NCBI GenBank assembly: GCA_003599295.1
Contig: QZJK01000011.1
Coordinates: 13,372-77,371, forward strand
From: Candidatus Parcubacteria bacterium
Lineage (GTDB): Bacteria > Patescibacteriota > Minisyncoccia > Phycocordibacterales > UBA2100
DNA length: 64,000 nucleotides
Direction: 5' to 3'
Notes under the pieces: model-generated
What the model saw: the letters and a program-made list of their open reading frames with translations, nothing else
What the model was told of the DNA's origin: nothing
Databases searched by the model: none
In this document: one piece after another, positions 3,702 through 50,920 of the stretch
How positions within the stretch are numbered: position 1 is the stretch's first letter
Layout: each line of letters opens with the position of its first letter
Made by a program: the position numbers and the translations under genes

Positions 3702-3961
3702 GCATAAACATCACAAAGGTGGCGCAAGAAGAATTCCGGTGCTAGTCTGATAAGCACAGGTTGAATATTGGCTCGTGAGAGCAAGACCTAAACCATCGCT
3801 TCGGCGGTGGCATGGTCGGGTAGACCGGTAAAGGACAGAAAACCCGTTGTGGGAACTGCCTTTACCGGCCATGTCGGGAAACCGGCGTGGATGGGGCTTC
3901 GGCTCCGTCAACCCGCAGCGGGCTTTGTGTTTTATCGGATAAAGTGATAAATAGATTGCGT

Positions 3962-5571: not shown

Positions 5572-5765
5572 TCCCATGATTAGTGTCGAGAAGTGCAGGG
5601 AACTATTGGGCGATGAGAGCCTCACAGACGAGCAAATTGAGGCTCTCAGAACCGATTTATACGAGATGGCGCAACTTGCCTTCGAGACGTGGGTGCACGA
5701 AAAATACGGTTCCAAATATCCCATTGGGTCATTGCCGGATTCACTATGAGCGCTACAGTTTAGCT

Positions 5766-7295
5766 ATGGGGAATGAAGGTCAAAAAACAAGTATCATTTA
5801 CGCAAGAGTCTCTTCATGGGAGCAGGTTTCGAACACCAGCCTTGAACGGCAAGTGCGCGAATGCAGAGAGTATGCGGAGCGGAACGGTATCACTATCATC
5901 GCGGAGCCGTTCATTGAGGAGGGCGAGTCTGCAAAGAGCGCAGACAGAACTCAGTTCCAAAAAGCACTGAGCTTTTGCGCTACCAAGAAAAACAAAGTTG
6001 GATATTTAATCGTGCACAAAGTAGACCGCTTCGCTCGCAATCAAGACGATCATGTTGCCACACGGGCATTTCTCAAACGATACGGAGTGCAACTACGCTC
6101 AGTGATGGAACCGATAGACGAGAGCACAATCGGACGACTTCAAGAGGGTATCCTCTCGGTGTTTGCGGAGTTCGATAACAATGTGCGAGCGGAGAGAAGC
6201 AAAAACGGGATGATAGAGAAAGTGAAGAAAGGCATTTGGGTATGGAGGCCTCCACTTGGCTACAAACGACTCACTAAAGGCGGCAACATCGTGCCTGAGG
6301 AAGAAACAGCCCATTACATCCAGCTGATATTCGAGGAATATAGCAAAGGCACTTATAGTTTTCAGGCGTTGTCCGATTTCATGGAAAAACGTGGATTCAG
6401 GACGAGCACCGGTAAAAAACCGTGCGCACAACTCATGGAAAAGATTCTTCGCAACCCTGCTTACTTCGGAACGATTCGAGCGTGGGGGCATGAGATTCGG
6501 GGTGCATTTCCTGCAATAGTTAGTGAGGAGTTGTATTGGAAGTGTCAGCCGGAGTTGCGCAGCAGGTTTGCCATAGTAAATCGTAGTATCACCAATCCGG
6601 CATTTCCTCTCCGCAAGTTCACAATTTGCCCTGAGTGCGGCCGCCCGCTTACAGGAAGCTTCTCCACCGGCAGAAAAGGAATGAAATACCCTTACTATCA
6701 TCACCAGAAGCAATCATGCTCTGCTGCGTCGTTTATCCCGAAGGAAACGCTGGAACAGCACTTCGTAGAGTTCCTACAAGAAATTAGTCCGCGTGCGCGG
6801 AACGAGAGGCTATTTAAGGCAGTTGTCGTTGATTTATGGCAAAAGAATTACAAGAAGTTGGATGAGGACAACGTGCGTGTCCGTAGGGAGATAGAATGGC
6901 TTGAGGCAGAACGTCAGCGGGTTTTTGATATGCACCGCACTGGCAAATATTCGGATGACGAGTTTTTAGAGCAGAAGCACCTTGTAAACATTCAGATTCA
7001 GCAAAAGAAGAATCTACTCGATGATAAGCGCATTGAGGAGTTCAACATGGACGAAGCACTTACCTATTGCTTCAACTACGTGCGCGAAAGTGGCAAGACA
7101 TGGAAACGGCTTGAGAAGGTTCCGGCGATACGTGTGCGGTTCCAAAAAGCCGCGTTCCCTGAAAAAGTGACTTTTGACGGCAAGAAATTTGGAACCAAGA
7201 AAATGTCGCTCGTTTACGAGCTGAATCAGGGGAAGAACCCCAAAAAATCTCAGATGGTGACCCTATCGGGAATCGAACCCGAGTTAACAGCTTGA
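5766..7295 (+). CDS. Large serine recombinase (resolvase/integrase family).
   Basis: N-terminal resolvase catalytic region IIYARVSS..Q..SLERQ. Then DRFARN, a recombinase domain and a zinc-ribbon (CPECGRP...). The last ~13 codons are antisense of tRNA-Glu, so the true C-terminus may be slightly different. Confidence 0.85.
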   Translation: MGNEGQKTSIIYARVSSWEQVSNTSLERQVRECREYAERNGITIIAEPFIEEGESAKSADRTQFQKALSFCATKKNKVGYLIVHKVDRFARNQDDHVATRAFLKRYGVQLRSVMEPIDESTIGRLQEGILSVFAEFDNNVRAERSKNGMIEKVKKGIWVWRPPLGYKRLTKGGNIVPEEETAHYIQLIFEEYSKGTYSFQALSDFMEKRGFRTSTGKKPCAQLMEKILRNPAYFGTIRAWGHEIRGAFPAIVSEELYWKCQPELRSRFAIVNRSITNPAFPLRKFTICPECGRPLTGSFSTGRKGMKYPYYHHQKQSCSAASFIPKETLEQHFVEFLQEISPRARNERLFKAVVVDLWQKNYKKLDEDNVRVRREIEWLEAERQRVFDMHRTGKYSDDEFLEQKHLVNIQIQQKKNLLDDKRIEEFNMDEALTYCFNYVRESGKTWKRLEKVPAIRVRFQKAAFPEKVTFDGKKFGTKKMSLVYELNQGKNPKKSQMVTLSGIEPELTA

Positions 7296-7329
7296 AAAGC
7301 TGCTGTCCTAACCACTAGACGATAGGGCC
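7255..7329 (-). tRNA. tRNA-Glu, anticodon TTC, CCA encoded.
   Basis: Minus-strand sequence GGCCCTATCGTCTAGTGGTTAGGACAGCAGCTTTTCAAGCTGTTAACTCGGGTTCGATTCCCGATAGGGTCACCA folds as a cloverleaf with anticodon loop TTTTCAA. Confidence 0.8.
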
Positions 7330-12815: not shown

Positions 12816-13002
12816 GACAGACCACTCTAAAAAGAATGGCTTTGTCCTTCTTTCATCCCGACTGTACGGTCGGCACTGGAATCTCACCAGTTCGTGTCTT
12901 TTTACAGACTCGCGGGCTTTACCGCCGATTGGGACTTACACCCAACCCCGAAGGAACATGCTTAGTATACACGATTTTGAGTCTGTACGGTACCGCTCAA
13001 AC

Positions 13003-13899: not shown

Positions 13900-14139
13900 G
13901 ATACGCTCCAATGTAGACTCAGGTCGTATCACCTTGGCTCCGCGGAGGCGCTGGGCGGCGCTCAGAGTCGCCGCGCGCGTGGCGAAATCACTTTGAATTT
14001 GATTTTTGAGCCACCAGCCGAGCTTGGAAACCCTCGGTTTTCCAACGCGCGCTTCGCGCGCTGCCTTCCGACACGGGGAACTCCCATTCCCCGACCCCCT
14101 CACACGCGAGGCGGCTCTACATTCACTACGTTCACTCTG
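13900..14139 (-). repeat. tRNA-trailer repeat element A, downstream of tRNA-Thr(CGT).
   Basis: Contains an inverted copy of the tRNA acceptor 3' end (agccgcctc), a GGGGTCGGGgaatgggagttCCCCGTG..GAAGG block, a cgcgcgaagcgcgcg hairpin and a ggaaaccc-tcg-ggtttcc hairpin. These are homologous to the elements at 15145-15318, 16046-16217 and 34774-34951. Confidence 0.45.
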
Positions 14140-14340: not shown

Positions 14341-15000
14341 TCACGCTACGGAATAATTTTGTAATTCCTCAATACTATTTTGTATAGCCGCATCTGAGAT
14401 GTCGTTCCACGCGAGCGATGTATTCGATAGTACCTGCTCCTCGAGTTTCTTGGCGGATTCCGAAAGTCTTCTGAACGATTCCTCGGATCCATAATGCGGT
14501 CGTATCTTGTTCGTCTCCAGATAGCGTCTTCTCCCCTCAAGAAGTCTCTCGATAAGGGGTAGGACGCCATACGGCCCGACGCGAAGGTCGGCATATTCGC
14601 ATACCTTGCGCTCGACCGAAGGGTCTTTCAGCACTTCCTCCAGCTTCGAAAAGCCGAGGCCATCTATCAACGTGCATACGTTTTCCGGGAGGCCCATGTC
14701 TCGTGCGATAGCGGAGTTTGCCGTGTGATGGTCAGCGCCGTATTTTTTCACGTACTCATCTTTCACTCCTTGCCAGTAGACAAGTCCCTGTGGCTCGAGG
14801 AATTCCGGAAAATACGAGAGTTCCGATTTTATGATATTCCCCATGTCGTGAAAGAGGCATGCGAGCACGACGTCCCGCGTGCGTATCGGCTTCTTGAAGT
14901 TCTCGGATACCAGCTTCCCCACCGCCGCCACACGCAGCTGATGAAGTTGGAGGCTCGGCATCACCCGAAATTCGGCGTACAGCTGACGAGGGGTTACCAT
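14341..15000 (-). CDS. HD-domain metal-dependent phosphohydrolase.
   Basis: LFHDMG is an HD motif. The ORF runs to 15036; a start at MVTPRQ (15000) is plausible. Confidence 0.65.
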   Translation of the reverse strand: MVTPRQLYAEFRVMPSLQLHQLRVAAVGKLVSENFKKPIRTRDVVLACLFHDMGNIIKSELSYFPEFLEPQGLVYWQGVKDEYVKKYGADHHTANSAIARDMGLPENVCTLIDGLGFSKLEEVLKDPSVERKVCEYADLRVGPYGVLPLIERLLEGRRRYLETNKIRPHYGSEESFRRLSESAKKLEEQVLSNTSLAWNDISDAAIQNSIEELQNYSVA

Positions 15001-15144
15001 GCACTCATGTGACCGTGCCGACGATGCTTCTCGCAAAATCGAGTATCAAGCTCAGGATCTGGATGAGAAACCCAACGAACAGTTCCAAAAAACGGAGGAG
15101 GAACGATAAGAGCATTTCGAGAAGTCCCTTGAGTGCTTCCATAT

Positions 15145-15318
15145 GCCTATAAGTTTACCATTTTGCGCGAGCGACCGGATAAGAACTTCTGGAAAACCCA
15201 CGGTTTTCCCATTCCTTCCTCCACGGGAAAACAAATGTTTTCCCGACCCCTTTCCCCTTCAAATCCGGTCTTTCGTTCAGCAAAATGGACCCGCGTACAC
15301 GAGTCCATTTTGTCGATG
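15145..15318 (-). repeat. tRNA-trailer repeat element B, downstream of tRNA-Asp. It ends in a 16-nt direct repeat of the tRNA 3' end.
   Basis: gcgcgagcgaccggat is present at 15145-15160 and again at 15318-15333 within the tRNA. There is an inverted T-loop copy (gaccggatttgaa), a GGGGTCGGGAAAAC block, and hairpins ggaaaacc-cac-ggttttcc and gggaaaac-aaat-gttttccc. Confidence 0.5.
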
Positions 15319-15392
15319 CGCGAGCGACCGGATTTGAACCGGCGACCTTTCCCGTGACAGGGGAACGCTCTAACCAGCTGAGCTACGCCCGC
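15319..15392 (-). tRNA. tRNA-Asp, anticodon GTC.
   Basis: GCGGGCGTAGCTCAGCTGGTTAGAGCGTTCCCCTGTCACGGGAAAGGTCGCCGGTTCAAATCCGGTCGCTCGCG. Anticodon loop ctGTCac. Confidence 0.8.
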
Positions 15393-15469
15393 AAGTGAGG
15401 AGCAAAGAGCATGCTTGCATGCTTTTTCTCCGAATGCCGCGGGCGTATGAGCCATGCGATTACGCCCGC
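15393..15469 (-). repeat. Conserved about 80-bp tRNA upstream leader repeat, copy 1, in front of tRNA-Asp.
   Basis: About 80% identical to 15577-15668. Shared blocks are agtgaggagcaaa, ctttttctccgaa and tatgag..cgattacgcc. It contains a copy of the tRNA 5' end (gcgggcgta) in a 9-bp hairpin, gcgggcgta-N13-tacgcccgc. Confidence 0.5.
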
Positions 15470-15508
15470 AAACGACGGCCATTCTAGCAGAAGTTTCCTT
15501 CCGTGTCG

Positions 15509-15575
15509 TGGTGCCGGCGCCAGGAGTTGAACCTGGGACCTAGCGCTTATGAAACGCTCGCTCTAACCACCTGAG
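15509..15575 (-). tRNA. tRNA-Met, anticodon CAT. Elongator Met or Ile2-type; these cannot be distinguished by eye. CCA is encoded.
   Basis: GCCGGCGTAGCTCAGGTGGTTAGAGCGAGCGTTTCATAAGCGCTAGGTCCCAGGTTCAACTCCTGGCGCCGGCACCA. Anticodon loop ttCATaa. Confidence 0.75.
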
Positions 15576-15576
15576 C

Positions 15577-15668
15577 TACGCCGGCCTAGTGAGGAGCAAA
15601 AAGGATGCTAGCGTCCTTTTTCTCCGAACGCCGCCGGAGTATGAGAAATACTCGATTACGCCGGCGTA
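15577..15668 (-). repeat. Conserved tRNA upstream leader repeat, copy 2, in front of tRNA-Met(CAT).
   Basis: Homologous to 15393-15469. It contains a copy of the tRNA-Met 5' end (gccggcgta) plus an inverted partner. Confidence 0.5.
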
Positions 15669-15727
15669 CAGAAAATCTACTAGACTTCGCCTACTCCAGC
15701 AAGCAAAACATATACTATAATTCTCTC

Positions 15728-15916
15728 ATGGGGCGTTTTTGGAATCTGGTTCTCACTATCAACTCCGCGCTTCTTGTCTGTGCGAGCGTCTTTCTCGTTT
15801 ATTCGTTCGGGACAATGCTCATCTTTTTCGAATGGAAACAGTTCGTACTTGCGCTCACTATTTTTATCGTACTCATAGGAACAGAGATGGTCTTCAATAC
15901 ACTCTGTCACGACTGA
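15728..15916 (+). CDS. Hypothetical small two-TM membrane protein.
   Basis: MGRFWNLVLTINSALLVCASVFLVYSFGTMLIFFEWKQFVLALTIFIVLIGTE. The upstream part of the 15605 ORF overlaps the tRNA leader repeat. Confidence 0.3.
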   Translation: MGRFWNLVLTINSALLVCASVFLVYSFGTMLIFFEWKQFVLALTIFIVLIGTEMVFNTLCHD

Positions 15917-15973: not shown

Positions 15974-16045
15974 AGCGGGGTGGAGCAGTAGTAGCTCGCA
16001 AGGCTCATAACCTTGAGGTCGCAGGTGCAAGTCCTGCCCCCGCAA
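15974..16045 (+). tRNA. tRNA-Met, anticodon CAT, initiator-like (fMet).
   Basis: aGCGGGGTGGAGCAGTAGTAGCTCGCAAGGCTCATAACCTTGAGGTCGCAGGTGCAAGTCCTGCCCCCGCAA is near-identical in blocks to E. coli tRNA-fMet (GGGGTGGAGCAG, GGCTCATAACC). The 1:72 pair is unpaired (A:A) and A11:U24 is present. There are only 2 G:C pairs at 30-31 rather than 3. Confidence 0.7.
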
Positions 16046-16217
16046 CAAAAATGTAGAGATAGAAAACTTCCGCAAGTTTATTTTTGATGCGGGGACAGGA
16101 CTGGGAGAGGGTCGGAGAACGGGAGTTTTCTGTGAAGGAGAGCAGTGAGCGGAGCGAGCGTTGAGAACCGTGGGTTCTCAAAGAGGAGCGGAGCGACGAG
16201 TCTAGCCCCCCGCAACA
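16046..16217 (+). repeat. tRNA-trailer repeat element C, downstream of tRNA-fMet. It ends in an 11-nt direct repeat of the tRNA 3' end (cccccgcaaca).
   Basis: Inverted copy of the tRNA 3' end tgcggggacaggact at 16088-16102. Then a GGGAGAGGGTCGGAGAAC block, gagcggagcgagcg and the perfect hairpin ttgagaacc-gtg-ggttctcaa (16161-16181). Direct repeat at 16207-16217. Confidence 0.5.
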
Positions 16218-16221
16218 AGCA

Positions 16222-34773: not shown

Positions 34774-34951
34774 CAGATTTGAACGCAGTGAGAATACTGC
34801 GGAGAGGAGCAAGCGCTTCGCGCTTGCGTGGAGGGATTCGAAAGTGAGCGCGGGGTGCCTGTTCAGTAGGACGGGTCGCGCGAGCAGGCCCGAGCGGAGC
34901 GAGGAGCGACGGCGACGAGCGAGCTCTTGGGAGCATCCCTCCCTCTCCGCA
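34774..34951 (+). repeat. tRNA-trailer repeat element D, downstream of tRNA-Ser(GCT). It ends in a 17-nt direct repeat of the tRNA 3' end (atccctccctctccgca).
   Basis: Direct repeat at 34759-34775 and 34935-34951. Inverted copies tgcggagaggag and cgtggagggattcgaa, the hairpin caagcgcttcgcgcttg, and the gagcggagcgaggagcgacg block shared with element C. Confidence 0.5.
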
Positions 34952-34972
34952 AAAATCTATATAATAGAAGGT

Positions 34973-45051: not shown

Positions 45052-45120
45052 GCCCGTATTCTCGCACGCCCCCGGAAGTGCACAATCACCGGAATCCACA
45101 CGTGCTTCATGTACCTTCAG

Positions 45121-45193
45121 TCCGCCTGCCTGGACTCGAACCAGGAACCCCAGAGGTATAAGCTCTGTGCTCTAACCATTGAGCTACAGGCGG
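45121..45193 (-). tRNA. tRNA-Ile, anticodon TAT, which reads AUA.
   Basis: CCGCCTGTAGCTCAATGGTTAGAGCACAGAGCTTATACCTCTGGGGTTCCTGGTTCGAGTCCAGGCAGGCGGA. Anticodon stem cagag/ctctg with loop ctTATac. Confidence 0.7.
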
Positions 45194-50532: not shown

Positions 50533-50920
50533 GGGGGTGACTGGCTTCGACAAGGAAATCGACATATGTGTGCGCGGGCAACGCTGTAGCTGCGTTTCAA
50601 ACCGCTACACAAATTCAAGTGCGAACAAAGTAGCACGTGCAGTTTTGTCGCCCATTCAGTTGGGTGACCTGCAGTTCGCTTACGCGAAAGCCTAAGCGAC
50701 CGTCCACTAGGCTGATACTTGATTAAGCCTTCTTGGGCGTCACTTCATTCAAGCACTGAGTGTCGAATAGTCCGATCGACCTCTAAGACTAGGACTCGGC
50801 TTTGCGCGATTCTGTTCGTCCCTTACGCGCATCGCTTAAATCTTGAGACGATCTACGCCTCGTAGATACATACATACTGTTTTTCCTTGGACTCGGGTCC
50901 GATACCCGACACCTCCACCA
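50533..50920 (+). ncRNA. ssrA: tmRNA (transfer-messenger RNA).
   Basis: 5' GGGGGTGACTGGCTTCGACAAGGAAATCGAC is the canonical tmRNA start. The 3' tRNA-like end is GGACTCGGGTCCGATACCCGACACCTCCACCA. The internal tag ORF ends in ...LQFAYAKA-stop. It sits directly after smpB and is followed by a terminator. Confidence 0.85.

Follow-up and report, generated by a model that had tools for sequence, protein, structure and literature searches.

Hairpin cassettes at the 5′ ends of tRNA genes in Candidatus Kaiserbacteria: very probably a family of site-specific insertions

Two transfer RNA (tRNA) genes, tRNA-Asp and tRNA-Met, in a 64,000-nt stretch of the Candidatus Parcubacteria contig QZJK01000011.1 (the whole stretch is called the window below) were found to carry related hairpin-forming cassettes in their 5′ leaders. 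Each cassette lies between two copies of the first nine nucleotides (nt) of its own tRNA and holds a complement of these nine nt. Comparison with related genomes makes it very probable that the repeats belong to a family of insertion-type elements, and on sequence evidence the cassette is found in a subset of Candidatus Kaiserbacteria. The reading that we prefer, with moderate confidence, is that of a gain-and-loss-prone, probably selfish and tRNA-specific cassette, the hairpin of which neutralizes the duplicated 5′ end of the tRNA.

The two regions had been flagged in an earlier reading of the letters (the sequence-only reading), which described homologous repeats with several blocks in common in the leaders of tRNA-Asp and tRNA-Met. 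Both points were borne out. ARAGORN and Rfam placed the two tRNA genes on the minus strand, with the flagged regions as their 5′ leaders; of the region 15577-15668, however, the part 15577-15585 is the first 9 nt of tRNA-Met, and the remainder is leader. A repeat search of the window returned a direct repeat of 58 nt with 86% identity (15394-15451 and 15588-15645) and a second shared block (CGATTACGCCCGC at 15457-15469 and CGATTACGCCGGC at 15653-15665). The blocks AGTGAGGAGCAAA and CTTTTTCTCCGAA occur twice each within the 64 kb, solely in the two leaders.

Ahead of each of the two tRNAs stands a module of 77-80 nt, composed of an upstream copy of tRNA nt 1-9 (T-up), a loop (ATCG..CTCA, loop X), the complement of T-up (T′), a linker (GGCRTTC), a second hairpin (hp2) and a tail (TCAYTW), followed by the intact tRNA, whose own nt 1-9 are termed T-down. 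On the tRNA-sense strand, copy 1 reads GCGGGCGTA-ATCGCATGGCTCA-TACGCCCGC-GGCATTC-GGAGAAAAAGCATGCAAGCATGCTCTTTGCTCC-TCACTT and continues into the tRNA-Asp start GCGGGCGTAGCTC, and copy 2 reads GCCGGCGTA-ATCGAGTATTTCTCA-TACTCCGGC-GGCGTTC-GGAGAAAAAGGACGCTAGCATCCTTTTTGCTCC-TCACTAG and continues into the tRNA-Met start GCCGGCGTAGCTC. The nt 1-9 copy and its reverse complement are thus present in each leader as first described, with loops of 13 and 15 nt instead of the 13-20 nt then given. The arms of hairpin 1 (T-up with T′) are fully complementary in copy 1 (GCGGGCGTA and its perfect reverse complement) but not in copy 2, where GCCGGCGTA and TACTCCGGC leave one C.T mismatch. The two-hairpin fold of both leaders was better than 200 of 200 shuffles, and this held for both strands (z = -3.3 to -4.8). 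The parts are as follows:

15318-15392, minus strand: tRNA-Asp(GTC), called by ARAGORN and Rfam; its nt 1-9 (15384-15392, GCGGGCGTA) are the T-down of copy 1
15393-15398, minus strand: copy 1 tail TCACTT, single-stranded, abutting tRNA +1, the expected cut site of ribonuclease P (RNase P)
15399-15431, minus strand: copy 1 hp2 GGAGAAAAAGCATGCAAGCATGCTCTTTGCTCC, with an A-tract and a T-tract on its flanks, terminator-like
15432-15438, minus strand: copy 1 linker GGCATTC, conserved, within the GGCRTTCGGAG block
15439-15447, minus strand: copy 1 T′ TACGCCCGC, exact reverse complement of tRNA-Asp nt 1-9
15448-15460, minus strand: copy 1 loop X ATCGCATGGCTCA, with likeness to initiator tRNA-Met nt 23-36
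15461-15469, minus strand: copy 1 T-up GCGGGCGTA, repeating tRNA-Asp nt 1-9 on the upstream side and forming the 5′ arm of hairpin 1
15509-15585, minus strand: tRNA-Met(CAT), elongator type with encoded CCA, called by ARAGORN and Rfam; its nt 1-9 (15577-15585, GCCGGCGTA) are the T-down of copy 2
15586-15592, minus strand: copy 2 tail TCACTAG
15593-15625, minus strand: copy 2 hp2 GGAGAAAAAGGACGCTAGCATCCTTTTTGCTCC
15626-15632, minus strand: copy 2 linker GGCGTTC
15633-15641, minus strand: copy 2 T′ TACTCCGGC, pairing with tRNA-Met nt 1-9 except for one C.T mismatch
15642-15656, minus strand: copy 2 loop X ATCGAGTATTTCTCA
15657-15665, minus strand: copy 2 T-up GCCGGCGTA
14341-15036, minus strand: gene of an HD-domain protein, neighbor of the tRNA cluster; the homologues of this protein assign the organism to Candidatus Kaiserbacteria

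A related Kaiserbacteria contig (L010, HD protein 79% identical) shares both the tRNA-Met and tRNA-Asp genes and their upstream flanks with the window and is free of the modules. At its empty sites the flank tctagtagattttgtgtac is joined to GCCGGCGTAGCTCAGG / GCCGGCGTAGCTC (tRNA-Met) and the flank ctgctagaatggccgtcgttt to GCGGGCGTAGCTCAGC / GCGGGCGTAGCTC (tRNA-Asp). In the window, identical flanks are followed by T-up, the cassette and T-down, so that relative to L010 there are an extra 68 nt (Asp) and 71 nt (Met) after tRNA nt 9, and then nt 1-9 again. Because L010 has the same genes and flanks without it, we read the module as an insertion flanked by a 9-bp direct repeat. This repeat is exactly tRNA nt 1-9 in all copies, and the insert measures 68-71 nt in the window and 64-73 nt across the family. 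Calls of presence and absence rest on metagenome contigs, many independent ones of which agree. The module had been offered as a possibly conserved feature of these tRNA genes; it proved to be an optional insertion, lacking from the same genes of relatives.

The family is known from 10 related metagenome contigs, with 15 full copies and a truncated one, gathered either by a metagenome pattern scan that required TAATCG..CTCATAC or from the loci of HD-protein homologues, with a corresponding bias in sampling. Hosts are tRNA-Met (three acceptor variants), tRNA-Asp, tRNA-Thr(GGT) and tRNA-Thr(CGT), with five kinds of 5′ 9-mer (GCGGGCGTA, GCCGGCGTA, GTCGGGGTA, GCCGATGTA and GCCGCCTTA), and all four host sites were also seen empty in other contigs, in varying combinations. 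A one-off local duplication of a tRNA with its flank, named in the sequence-only reading as the refuting outcome, does not fit, since the blocks recur at Thr-GGT, Thr-CGT and other Met and Asp genes of relatives, there too with a hairpin that matches the 5′ end of the tRNA. One contig (L035) has a tandem double insertion ahead of a single tRNA-Met, the two copies differing in hp2 type, and the Asp copies of L028 and L040 have lost loop X and kept the stem. A covariance model built from 12 copies matched, in about 217 kb of window and related loci, only directly 5′ of tRNAs. Two weak matches (L031 1377-1459 and L035 5514-5593) were rejected, one being an unrelated sequence not upstream of any tRNA and the other the 3′ end of initiator tRNA-Met (tRNA-fMet) with a terminator.

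Wider searches returned nothing comparable. A scan of representative-genome contigs, a set without the source genome, with the pattern CGGAGAAAAAN{12,18}TTTGCTCCTC gave 8 matches in unrelated taxa, approximately the number estimated for chance, none of them in the expected context. Viral contigs gave a single chance-level match (9.5 bits by the covariance model). No covariance model of Rfam 15 matched a leader or a trailer (the trailer elements are described below), at the gathering score or at E-values up to 5. No such tRNA leader is described in the RNA family library or the literature searched, in which the target-matched complement likewise has no counterpart; one paper looked at for structured natural leaders (PMC12439589) was not relevant. 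In L014 (3790-3923) and L031 (upstream of 3730), tRNA-Asp is preceded by a long structured leader of another kind (..CGTTCTTCG..CGAAGAACGTGAGAAGGTGACAGCTCACGCTTCACTCCTCTCATGG..) that has no -10-like hexamer close by, and this may be another family of leader elements.

T′ matches the 5′ end of its own tRNA. The six variable positions are all paired in 9 of 10 own T/T′ combinations, compared with mostly 4-5 of the 6 in the 72 cross combinations, and T-up is identical to the host tRNA 5′ end in 14 of the 15 copies. Two types of hp2 (AAAATGAGAATAT.. and AAAAAGCATGCAAGCATGC) are each present at several different tRNAs, indicating that T′ was re-matched independently of the rest of the element. Across an alignment of 12 sequences, pairing holds in 95.2% of cells, both sides have changed in 12 of the 23 pairs, both hairpins show compensatory changes, and the observed covariation score was reached by none of 500 shuffles. 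The idea that T′ was copied from the 3′ acceptor strand of its tRNA was considered and rejected (the Asp 3′ strand is CGCTCGC, T′ is CGCCCGC).

The two hairpins differ in how they appear on the two strands. Seven G.U pairs lie in the arms of hairpin 1 when these are read on the tRNA-sense strand, against zero on the antisense strand, which indicates a structure of the sense strand, most simply RNA; hp2 has wobbles on both strands. The design of hp2 (A-tract, stem, T-tract) is that of the native terminators after tRNAs of these genomes, yet a consensus scan called it a terminator on neither strand. In the copy from L013, T-up GCGGGAGTA (C6 to A) and T′ TACTTCCGC (G to T) have changed jointly, and the arms no longer equal the tRNA, a pattern that favors selection for the hairpin itself and not for a switch. 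Loop X of copy 1 (ATCGCAAGGCTCA plus TA), and likewise the loops of L028 and L041, contains an exact 14-nt match to nt 23-36 of initiator tRNA-Met (window 15996-16009), which was reached by none of 300 shuffles. It suggests that loop X may be a relic of a tRNA-Met origin, and the cassette may descend from a decayed tRNA-Met gene together with its terminator.

The position of the cassette relative to transcription signals was similar at all filled sites. Two such signals are present in the window:

15481-15509, minus strand: predicted promoter of the tRNA-Asp unit, ACGACA-17-TAGAAT; the -10 ends 11 nt before T-up and the -35 overlaps the tRNA-Met 3′ end
15674-15679, minus strand: -10-like hexamer TAGATT, 8 nt upstream of the T-up of copy 2; the same hexamer stands at the same spacing before tRNA-Met +1 at the empty site of L010

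The first (15509-15481), upstream of copy 1, is the sole promoter-like site, and no such site (-35/-10 hexamers) lies within either window module. All filled sites have a TANNNT hexamer that ends 7-14 nt (mostly 8-11) before T-up. At 9 of 12 empty sites a similar hexamer ends 8-11 nt before tRNA +1, and at the other 3 there is none within 16 nt. This shared geometry suggests that the native leaders are very short. The cassette would accordingly be placed downstream of the predicted start, with the precursor's extreme 5′ end occupied by hairpin 1. The sequence-only reading had also offered the repeats as promoter modules, which was not supported, the promoter-like site and the -10-like hexamers lying upstream of T-up.

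Our preferred reading brings these observations together in the following way. The cassette would lie inside the transcribed 5′ end of the tRNA gene, so that the native promoter comes first, then T-up through tail, then the complete tRNA. Once transcribed from that promoter, T-up and T′ would give the pre-tRNA a 5′-terminal hairpin that replicates the acceptor stem, keeping T-up off the 3′ acceptor strand and T′ off the 5′ strand of the tRNA. With hp2 folded, a single-stranded tail of 6-7 nt would be left, and an RNase P cut at the true +1 would discard the whole cassette and leave the host tRNA functional. What would make the insertion tolerable is the duplication of nt 1-9, together with the ability of RNase P to cut off all that precedes +1. 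Once present, T-up and T′ would each threaten the folding of the tRNA, and selection would keep them mutually paired, which would account for the sense-only wobbles and for the co-variation in L013.

Several observations weigh against this reading. The sample is small (15 copies) and pattern- or neighbor-biased. The window has 2 copies in 64 kb, and copies are known only 5′ of four tRNAs, every one of them within one syntenic cluster (Met-Asp-Thr-Thr), so that the spread could be due to local recombination instead of transposition. Searches turned up neither a transposase (also not in the neighborhood of any copy) nor an integrase nor terminal inverted repeats, and there is no copy away from a tRNA; the inverted repeats were sought in several registers in all 15 copies, the ends of which (ATCG... 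and ...TCAYTW) are not complementary. The cassettes of the window, L034 and L041 are 95-97% identical, compared with 74-78% for nearby coding DNA and 59% for the neighboring HD protein, which could mean purifying selection for a function and not neutrality. A purely neutral hairpin would not require T-up to equal the tRNA 5′ end, and the identity holds even between apparently orthologous Met-site copies with differing acceptor stems. Finally, for 10 of 12 copies the antisense strand gives the more stable hp2, and the place of this hairpin between promoter and tRNA should cost expression. The high identity extends beyond the cassettes: the block from tRNA-Met to tRNA-Asp is 97-100% identical between window 15300-15595 and L041 1-290, 40-nt spacer and Asp cassette included, and 93% identical to L034 (4059-4799), reflecting either recent exchange or strong constraint.

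Function is the essence of the best surviving alternative, which we nevertheless consider improbable: a leader switch, in which T′ alternates between T-up and T-down and so tunes or delays tRNA maturation. Two precursor folds were predicted. State 1 consists of hairpin 1, hp2 and the cloverleaf, and leaves 6-7 nt (TCAYTW) single-stranded ahead of an exposed RNase P site. In state 2, T′ pairs with T-down and T-up takes the acceptor position against the 3′ acceptor strand; the 5′ strand and the cleavage site are sequestered, and the cassette protrudes from the cloverleaf as an added arm between nt 9 and 10. The two are near iso-energetic, with state 2 no higher in energy for 8 of 11 precursors and the minimum-energy fold of the window Asp precursor (-68 vs -62.7 kcal/mol), in a model that ignores tertiary structure and transcription order, both of which favor state 1. 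The alternative pairing of the 5′-end mimic with the acceptor stem, as first suggested, is energetically competitive. Also in its favor are the matching of T-up to the tRNA in nearly all copies, the strong conservation between the window, L034 and L041 against divergent coding DNA, and the precedent of engineered leaders: the abstract of one source (PMC7897497) describes synthetic, ligand-controlled RNase P riboswitch leaders that expose or sequester the RNase P region by alternative pairing, and such 5′-leader-sequestering designs do control RNase P cleavage. The alternative pairings there and in the cassette are alike.

In the cassette, however, no ligand or control of this kind is evident, there is no evident ligand- or protein-binding element, and the Rfam searches gave no match. 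The cassette is optional, with the same tRNA genes of close relatives doing without it; T-up and T′ are transcribed first, which favors hairpin 1 in co-transcriptional folding; and the two Asp copies without loop X dropped it and kept the hairpin. In L013, T′ and the tRNA are left with 7 Watson-Crick pairs and 1 G.U. The joint change of the L013 arms away from the tRNA favors selection for the T-up/T′ hairpin over selection for a switch, and to that extent a switch was not supported.

A second alternative, somewhat more doubtful, treats T′ as the determinant of insertion. It would target the tRNA 5′ end by pairing (as RNA or as single-stranded DNA), or be copied from the target at insertion, in what would be a guide-programmed or templated mobile element. 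The 9-nt repeat would then be the resulting target duplication, and the tRNA trailer elements of these genomes might follow the same logic at tRNA 3′ ends, an extension that is just as doubtful. Such trailers follow four tRNAs of the window, namely tRNA-Thr(CGT) (13990-14138), tRNA-Asp (15164-15317), tRNA-fMet (16047-16218) and tRNA-Ser(GCT) (34775-34952), and consist of a structured body set between an inverted copy of the tRNA 3′ end and a direct copy that follows it, with shared motifs such as GGAAAACCNNGGGTTTTCC and GAGCGGAGCGA. The one nearest to the cassettes is laid out thus:

15164-15317, minus strand: trailer element of tRNA-Asp, with a terminator-like hairpin, an inverted 3′-end copy (15258-15275), a body and a direct 3′-end copy (15164-15186)

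This segment of 154 nt (about 138 nt plus the second 3′-end copy) is missing from the corresponding site of L010, L032, L040 and L041. The leaders had been proposed as the upstream counterpart of the trailers, and the architecture is indeed parallel (in order T, loop, T′, body and T, the tRNA end being repeated both directly and in inverted form). Similar trailers were also seen behind tRNA-Met in L014-L019.

Targeting by pairing would explain why both hp2 subfamilies occur at several tRNAs with T′ following each of them, at up to 4 of 9 positions differing between sites, and why this variable segment lies between the conserved blocks CTCA and GGCRTTCGGA. The direct repeat always has the same extent as T′, the trailers hold inverted and direct tRNA 3′-end copies of similar extent, and L035 offers its tandem double insertion. 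Opposed to this, the analysis yielded neither a candidate enzyme nor an excised or free form, and the 15 known copies come from one tRNA cluster. The mismatches and wobbles of T′ could equally be compensation after insertion, and T′ variants common to both hp2 subfamilies at one site (L032, L035a and L035b) suggest local exchange and not independent targeting. If this alternative held, a chance that we put no higher, the cassette, perhaps with the trailers, would be a new class of miniature mobile element, with its target chosen by base pairing, the guided segment duplicated, and RNase P excision making it a leader intron in effect.

It is highly improbable that each module is a local relic, the remnant of a tandem duplicate of the host tRNA and its terminator that decayed by internal deletion. 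Hairpin 1 does equal the acceptor stem, hp2 is terminator-like, and the period of 74-82 nt is close to a tRNA length. Nevertheless, Asp, Thr and Met modules share a conserved loop X (CTCATA, like the Met anticodon loop), linker and tail, the sequence after T′ is unlike the host tRNA's own trailer, and T′ is the Watson-Crick complement of nt 1-9 and not a 3′-strand copy (CGCTCGC in Asp). Tandem duplication of each host tRNA was rejected as the explanation copy by copy; a decayed tRNA-Met gene is plausible as the origin of the founding copy.

We give hardly any credence to a promoter or terminator module or a gene on the opposite strand, although both window copies have a Shine-Dalgarno-like GTGAGGAG with GAGGAG and an ATG 8 nt later on the plus strand (open reading frames (ORFs) of 39 and 103 aa) and hp2 is more stable on that strand: the ATG is not conserved (L035b has CACGC there), the 103-aa ORF has no Pfam match, no promoter-like site lies inside the modules, hp2 is uncalled as a terminator on both strands, and the wobbles of hairpin 1 are sense-only. 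Plus-strand coding (MLACFFSE.. / MLASFFSE..) was rejected, the similarity following from the hairpin and the ATG not being conserved. The 103-aa frame, which starts inside leader copy 2, is the longer reading of a 62-aa hydrophobic ORF (15729-15916, within 15716-15916, plus strand) that has TATAAT 7 nt before its ATG, and its mRNA may be leaderless.

We class the cassette as a small site-specific insertion element, but it is without a defining feature of a MITE (miniature inverted-repeat transposable element), terminal inverted repeats, or of an integrative element, an integrase. MITE-like repeats and other small repeat families (e.g. Correia/NEMIS, RUP and REP/BIME) form hairpins, are co-transcribed with neighboring genes, are present or absent between relatives and have a short direct repeat. 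Like these small intergenic repeats, the cassette is short, non-coding, hairpin-forming, probably co-transcribed and variable in presence, with a short direct repeat of fixed length. Unlike MITEs, which have terminal inverted repeats according to the abstract of one paper, it lacks these, is not known to be dispersed, is found solely at tRNA nt 9/10, and carries a target-matched internal segment. Integrative elements that target tRNA genes likewise produce a direct repeat of a tRNA segment and leave the gene intact or restored. They are borne by an integrase and duplicate an attachment (att) site in the 3′ half of the tRNA, whereas the cassette sits at the 5′ end, is about 70 nt long, has a 9-nt repeat with an inverted copy of the target inside, and contains no integrase or recombinase and no conserved ORF. 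Elsewhere in the window, the gene of a 570-aa large serine recombinase (5583-7295, plus strand; Resolvase, Recombinase and Zn_ribbon_recom domains) terminates within the tRNA-Glu 3′ end (7255-7329, minus strand), which suggests an integrated element there; nothing links it to the leader cassette. A similar recombinase lies beside tRNA-Thr(CGT) in L021.

Closer in target are the Dada DNA transposons of eukaryotes, which insert in tRNA genes at the boundary of acceptor and D-arm (nt 8-13, TAGCTC) with a short target duplication (PMC8869645). The host sites of the cassette are all TA|GCTCAG, in the same target region (nt 8-10). Dada elements are autonomous, with duplications of 6-7 bp in multicopy genes; the cassette has a 9-nt duplication starting from +1, an intact gene, no transposase seen and no ORF.

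Group I introns, self-splicing ribozymes of about 200 nt or longer, offer a further parallel. In tRNA genes of Patescibacteria they stand at position 35/36, in the anticodon loop (PMC13011429). The cassette occurs in the same phylum and is likewise an insertion in a tRNA gene, one that would be tolerated since RNA processing removes it, and its T-up/T′ hairpin resembles the P1 helix, in which the 5′ exon is paired with an internal guide. It differs in its length of about 70 nt and its lack of a ribozyme core, and it was unmatched by Rfam Intron_gpI at the gathering score and at E-values up to 5. Splicing is not needed, because nt 1-9 are duplicated and an intact tRNA follows. A tRNA-Asp of L020 (2888-3160), missed by ARAGORN, is interrupted behind CCTGT (position 35/36) by an insert of about 195 nt, which fits the group I intron site in Patescibacteria (PMC13011429), and a LAGLIDADG-like ORF (2202-2897) lies just upstream.

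These observations mean that a bacterial tRNA gene can take up an insertion at its start and still not be lost, since its nt 1-9 are present twice and whatever lies upstream can be trimmed by RNase P. Such a safe harbor at the tRNA 5′ end differs from introns of the anticodon loop and from 3′-end integration sites. The target-matched complement raises the question of base-pair-guided targeting or of strong selection at the RNA level against free copies of acceptor-stem strands, and the cassette-bearing pre-tRNAs form a natural set with two competing folds for the study of RNase P substrate choice. Some caution is also advised in annotation, where copies of tRNA ends in leaders and trailers can lead astray a search for att sites or tRNA fragments in genomes of the candidate phyla radiation (CPR).

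Further RNA features of the window are a flavin mononucleotide (FMN) riboswitch (12841-12959, minus strand), a LOOT RNA (3785-3909, plus strand), a transfer-messenger RNA (tmRNA; 50533-50920, plus strand) with the tag ANKVARAVLSPIQLGDLQFAYAKA, and a tRNA-Ile with the anticodon UAU (45120-45193, minus strand).

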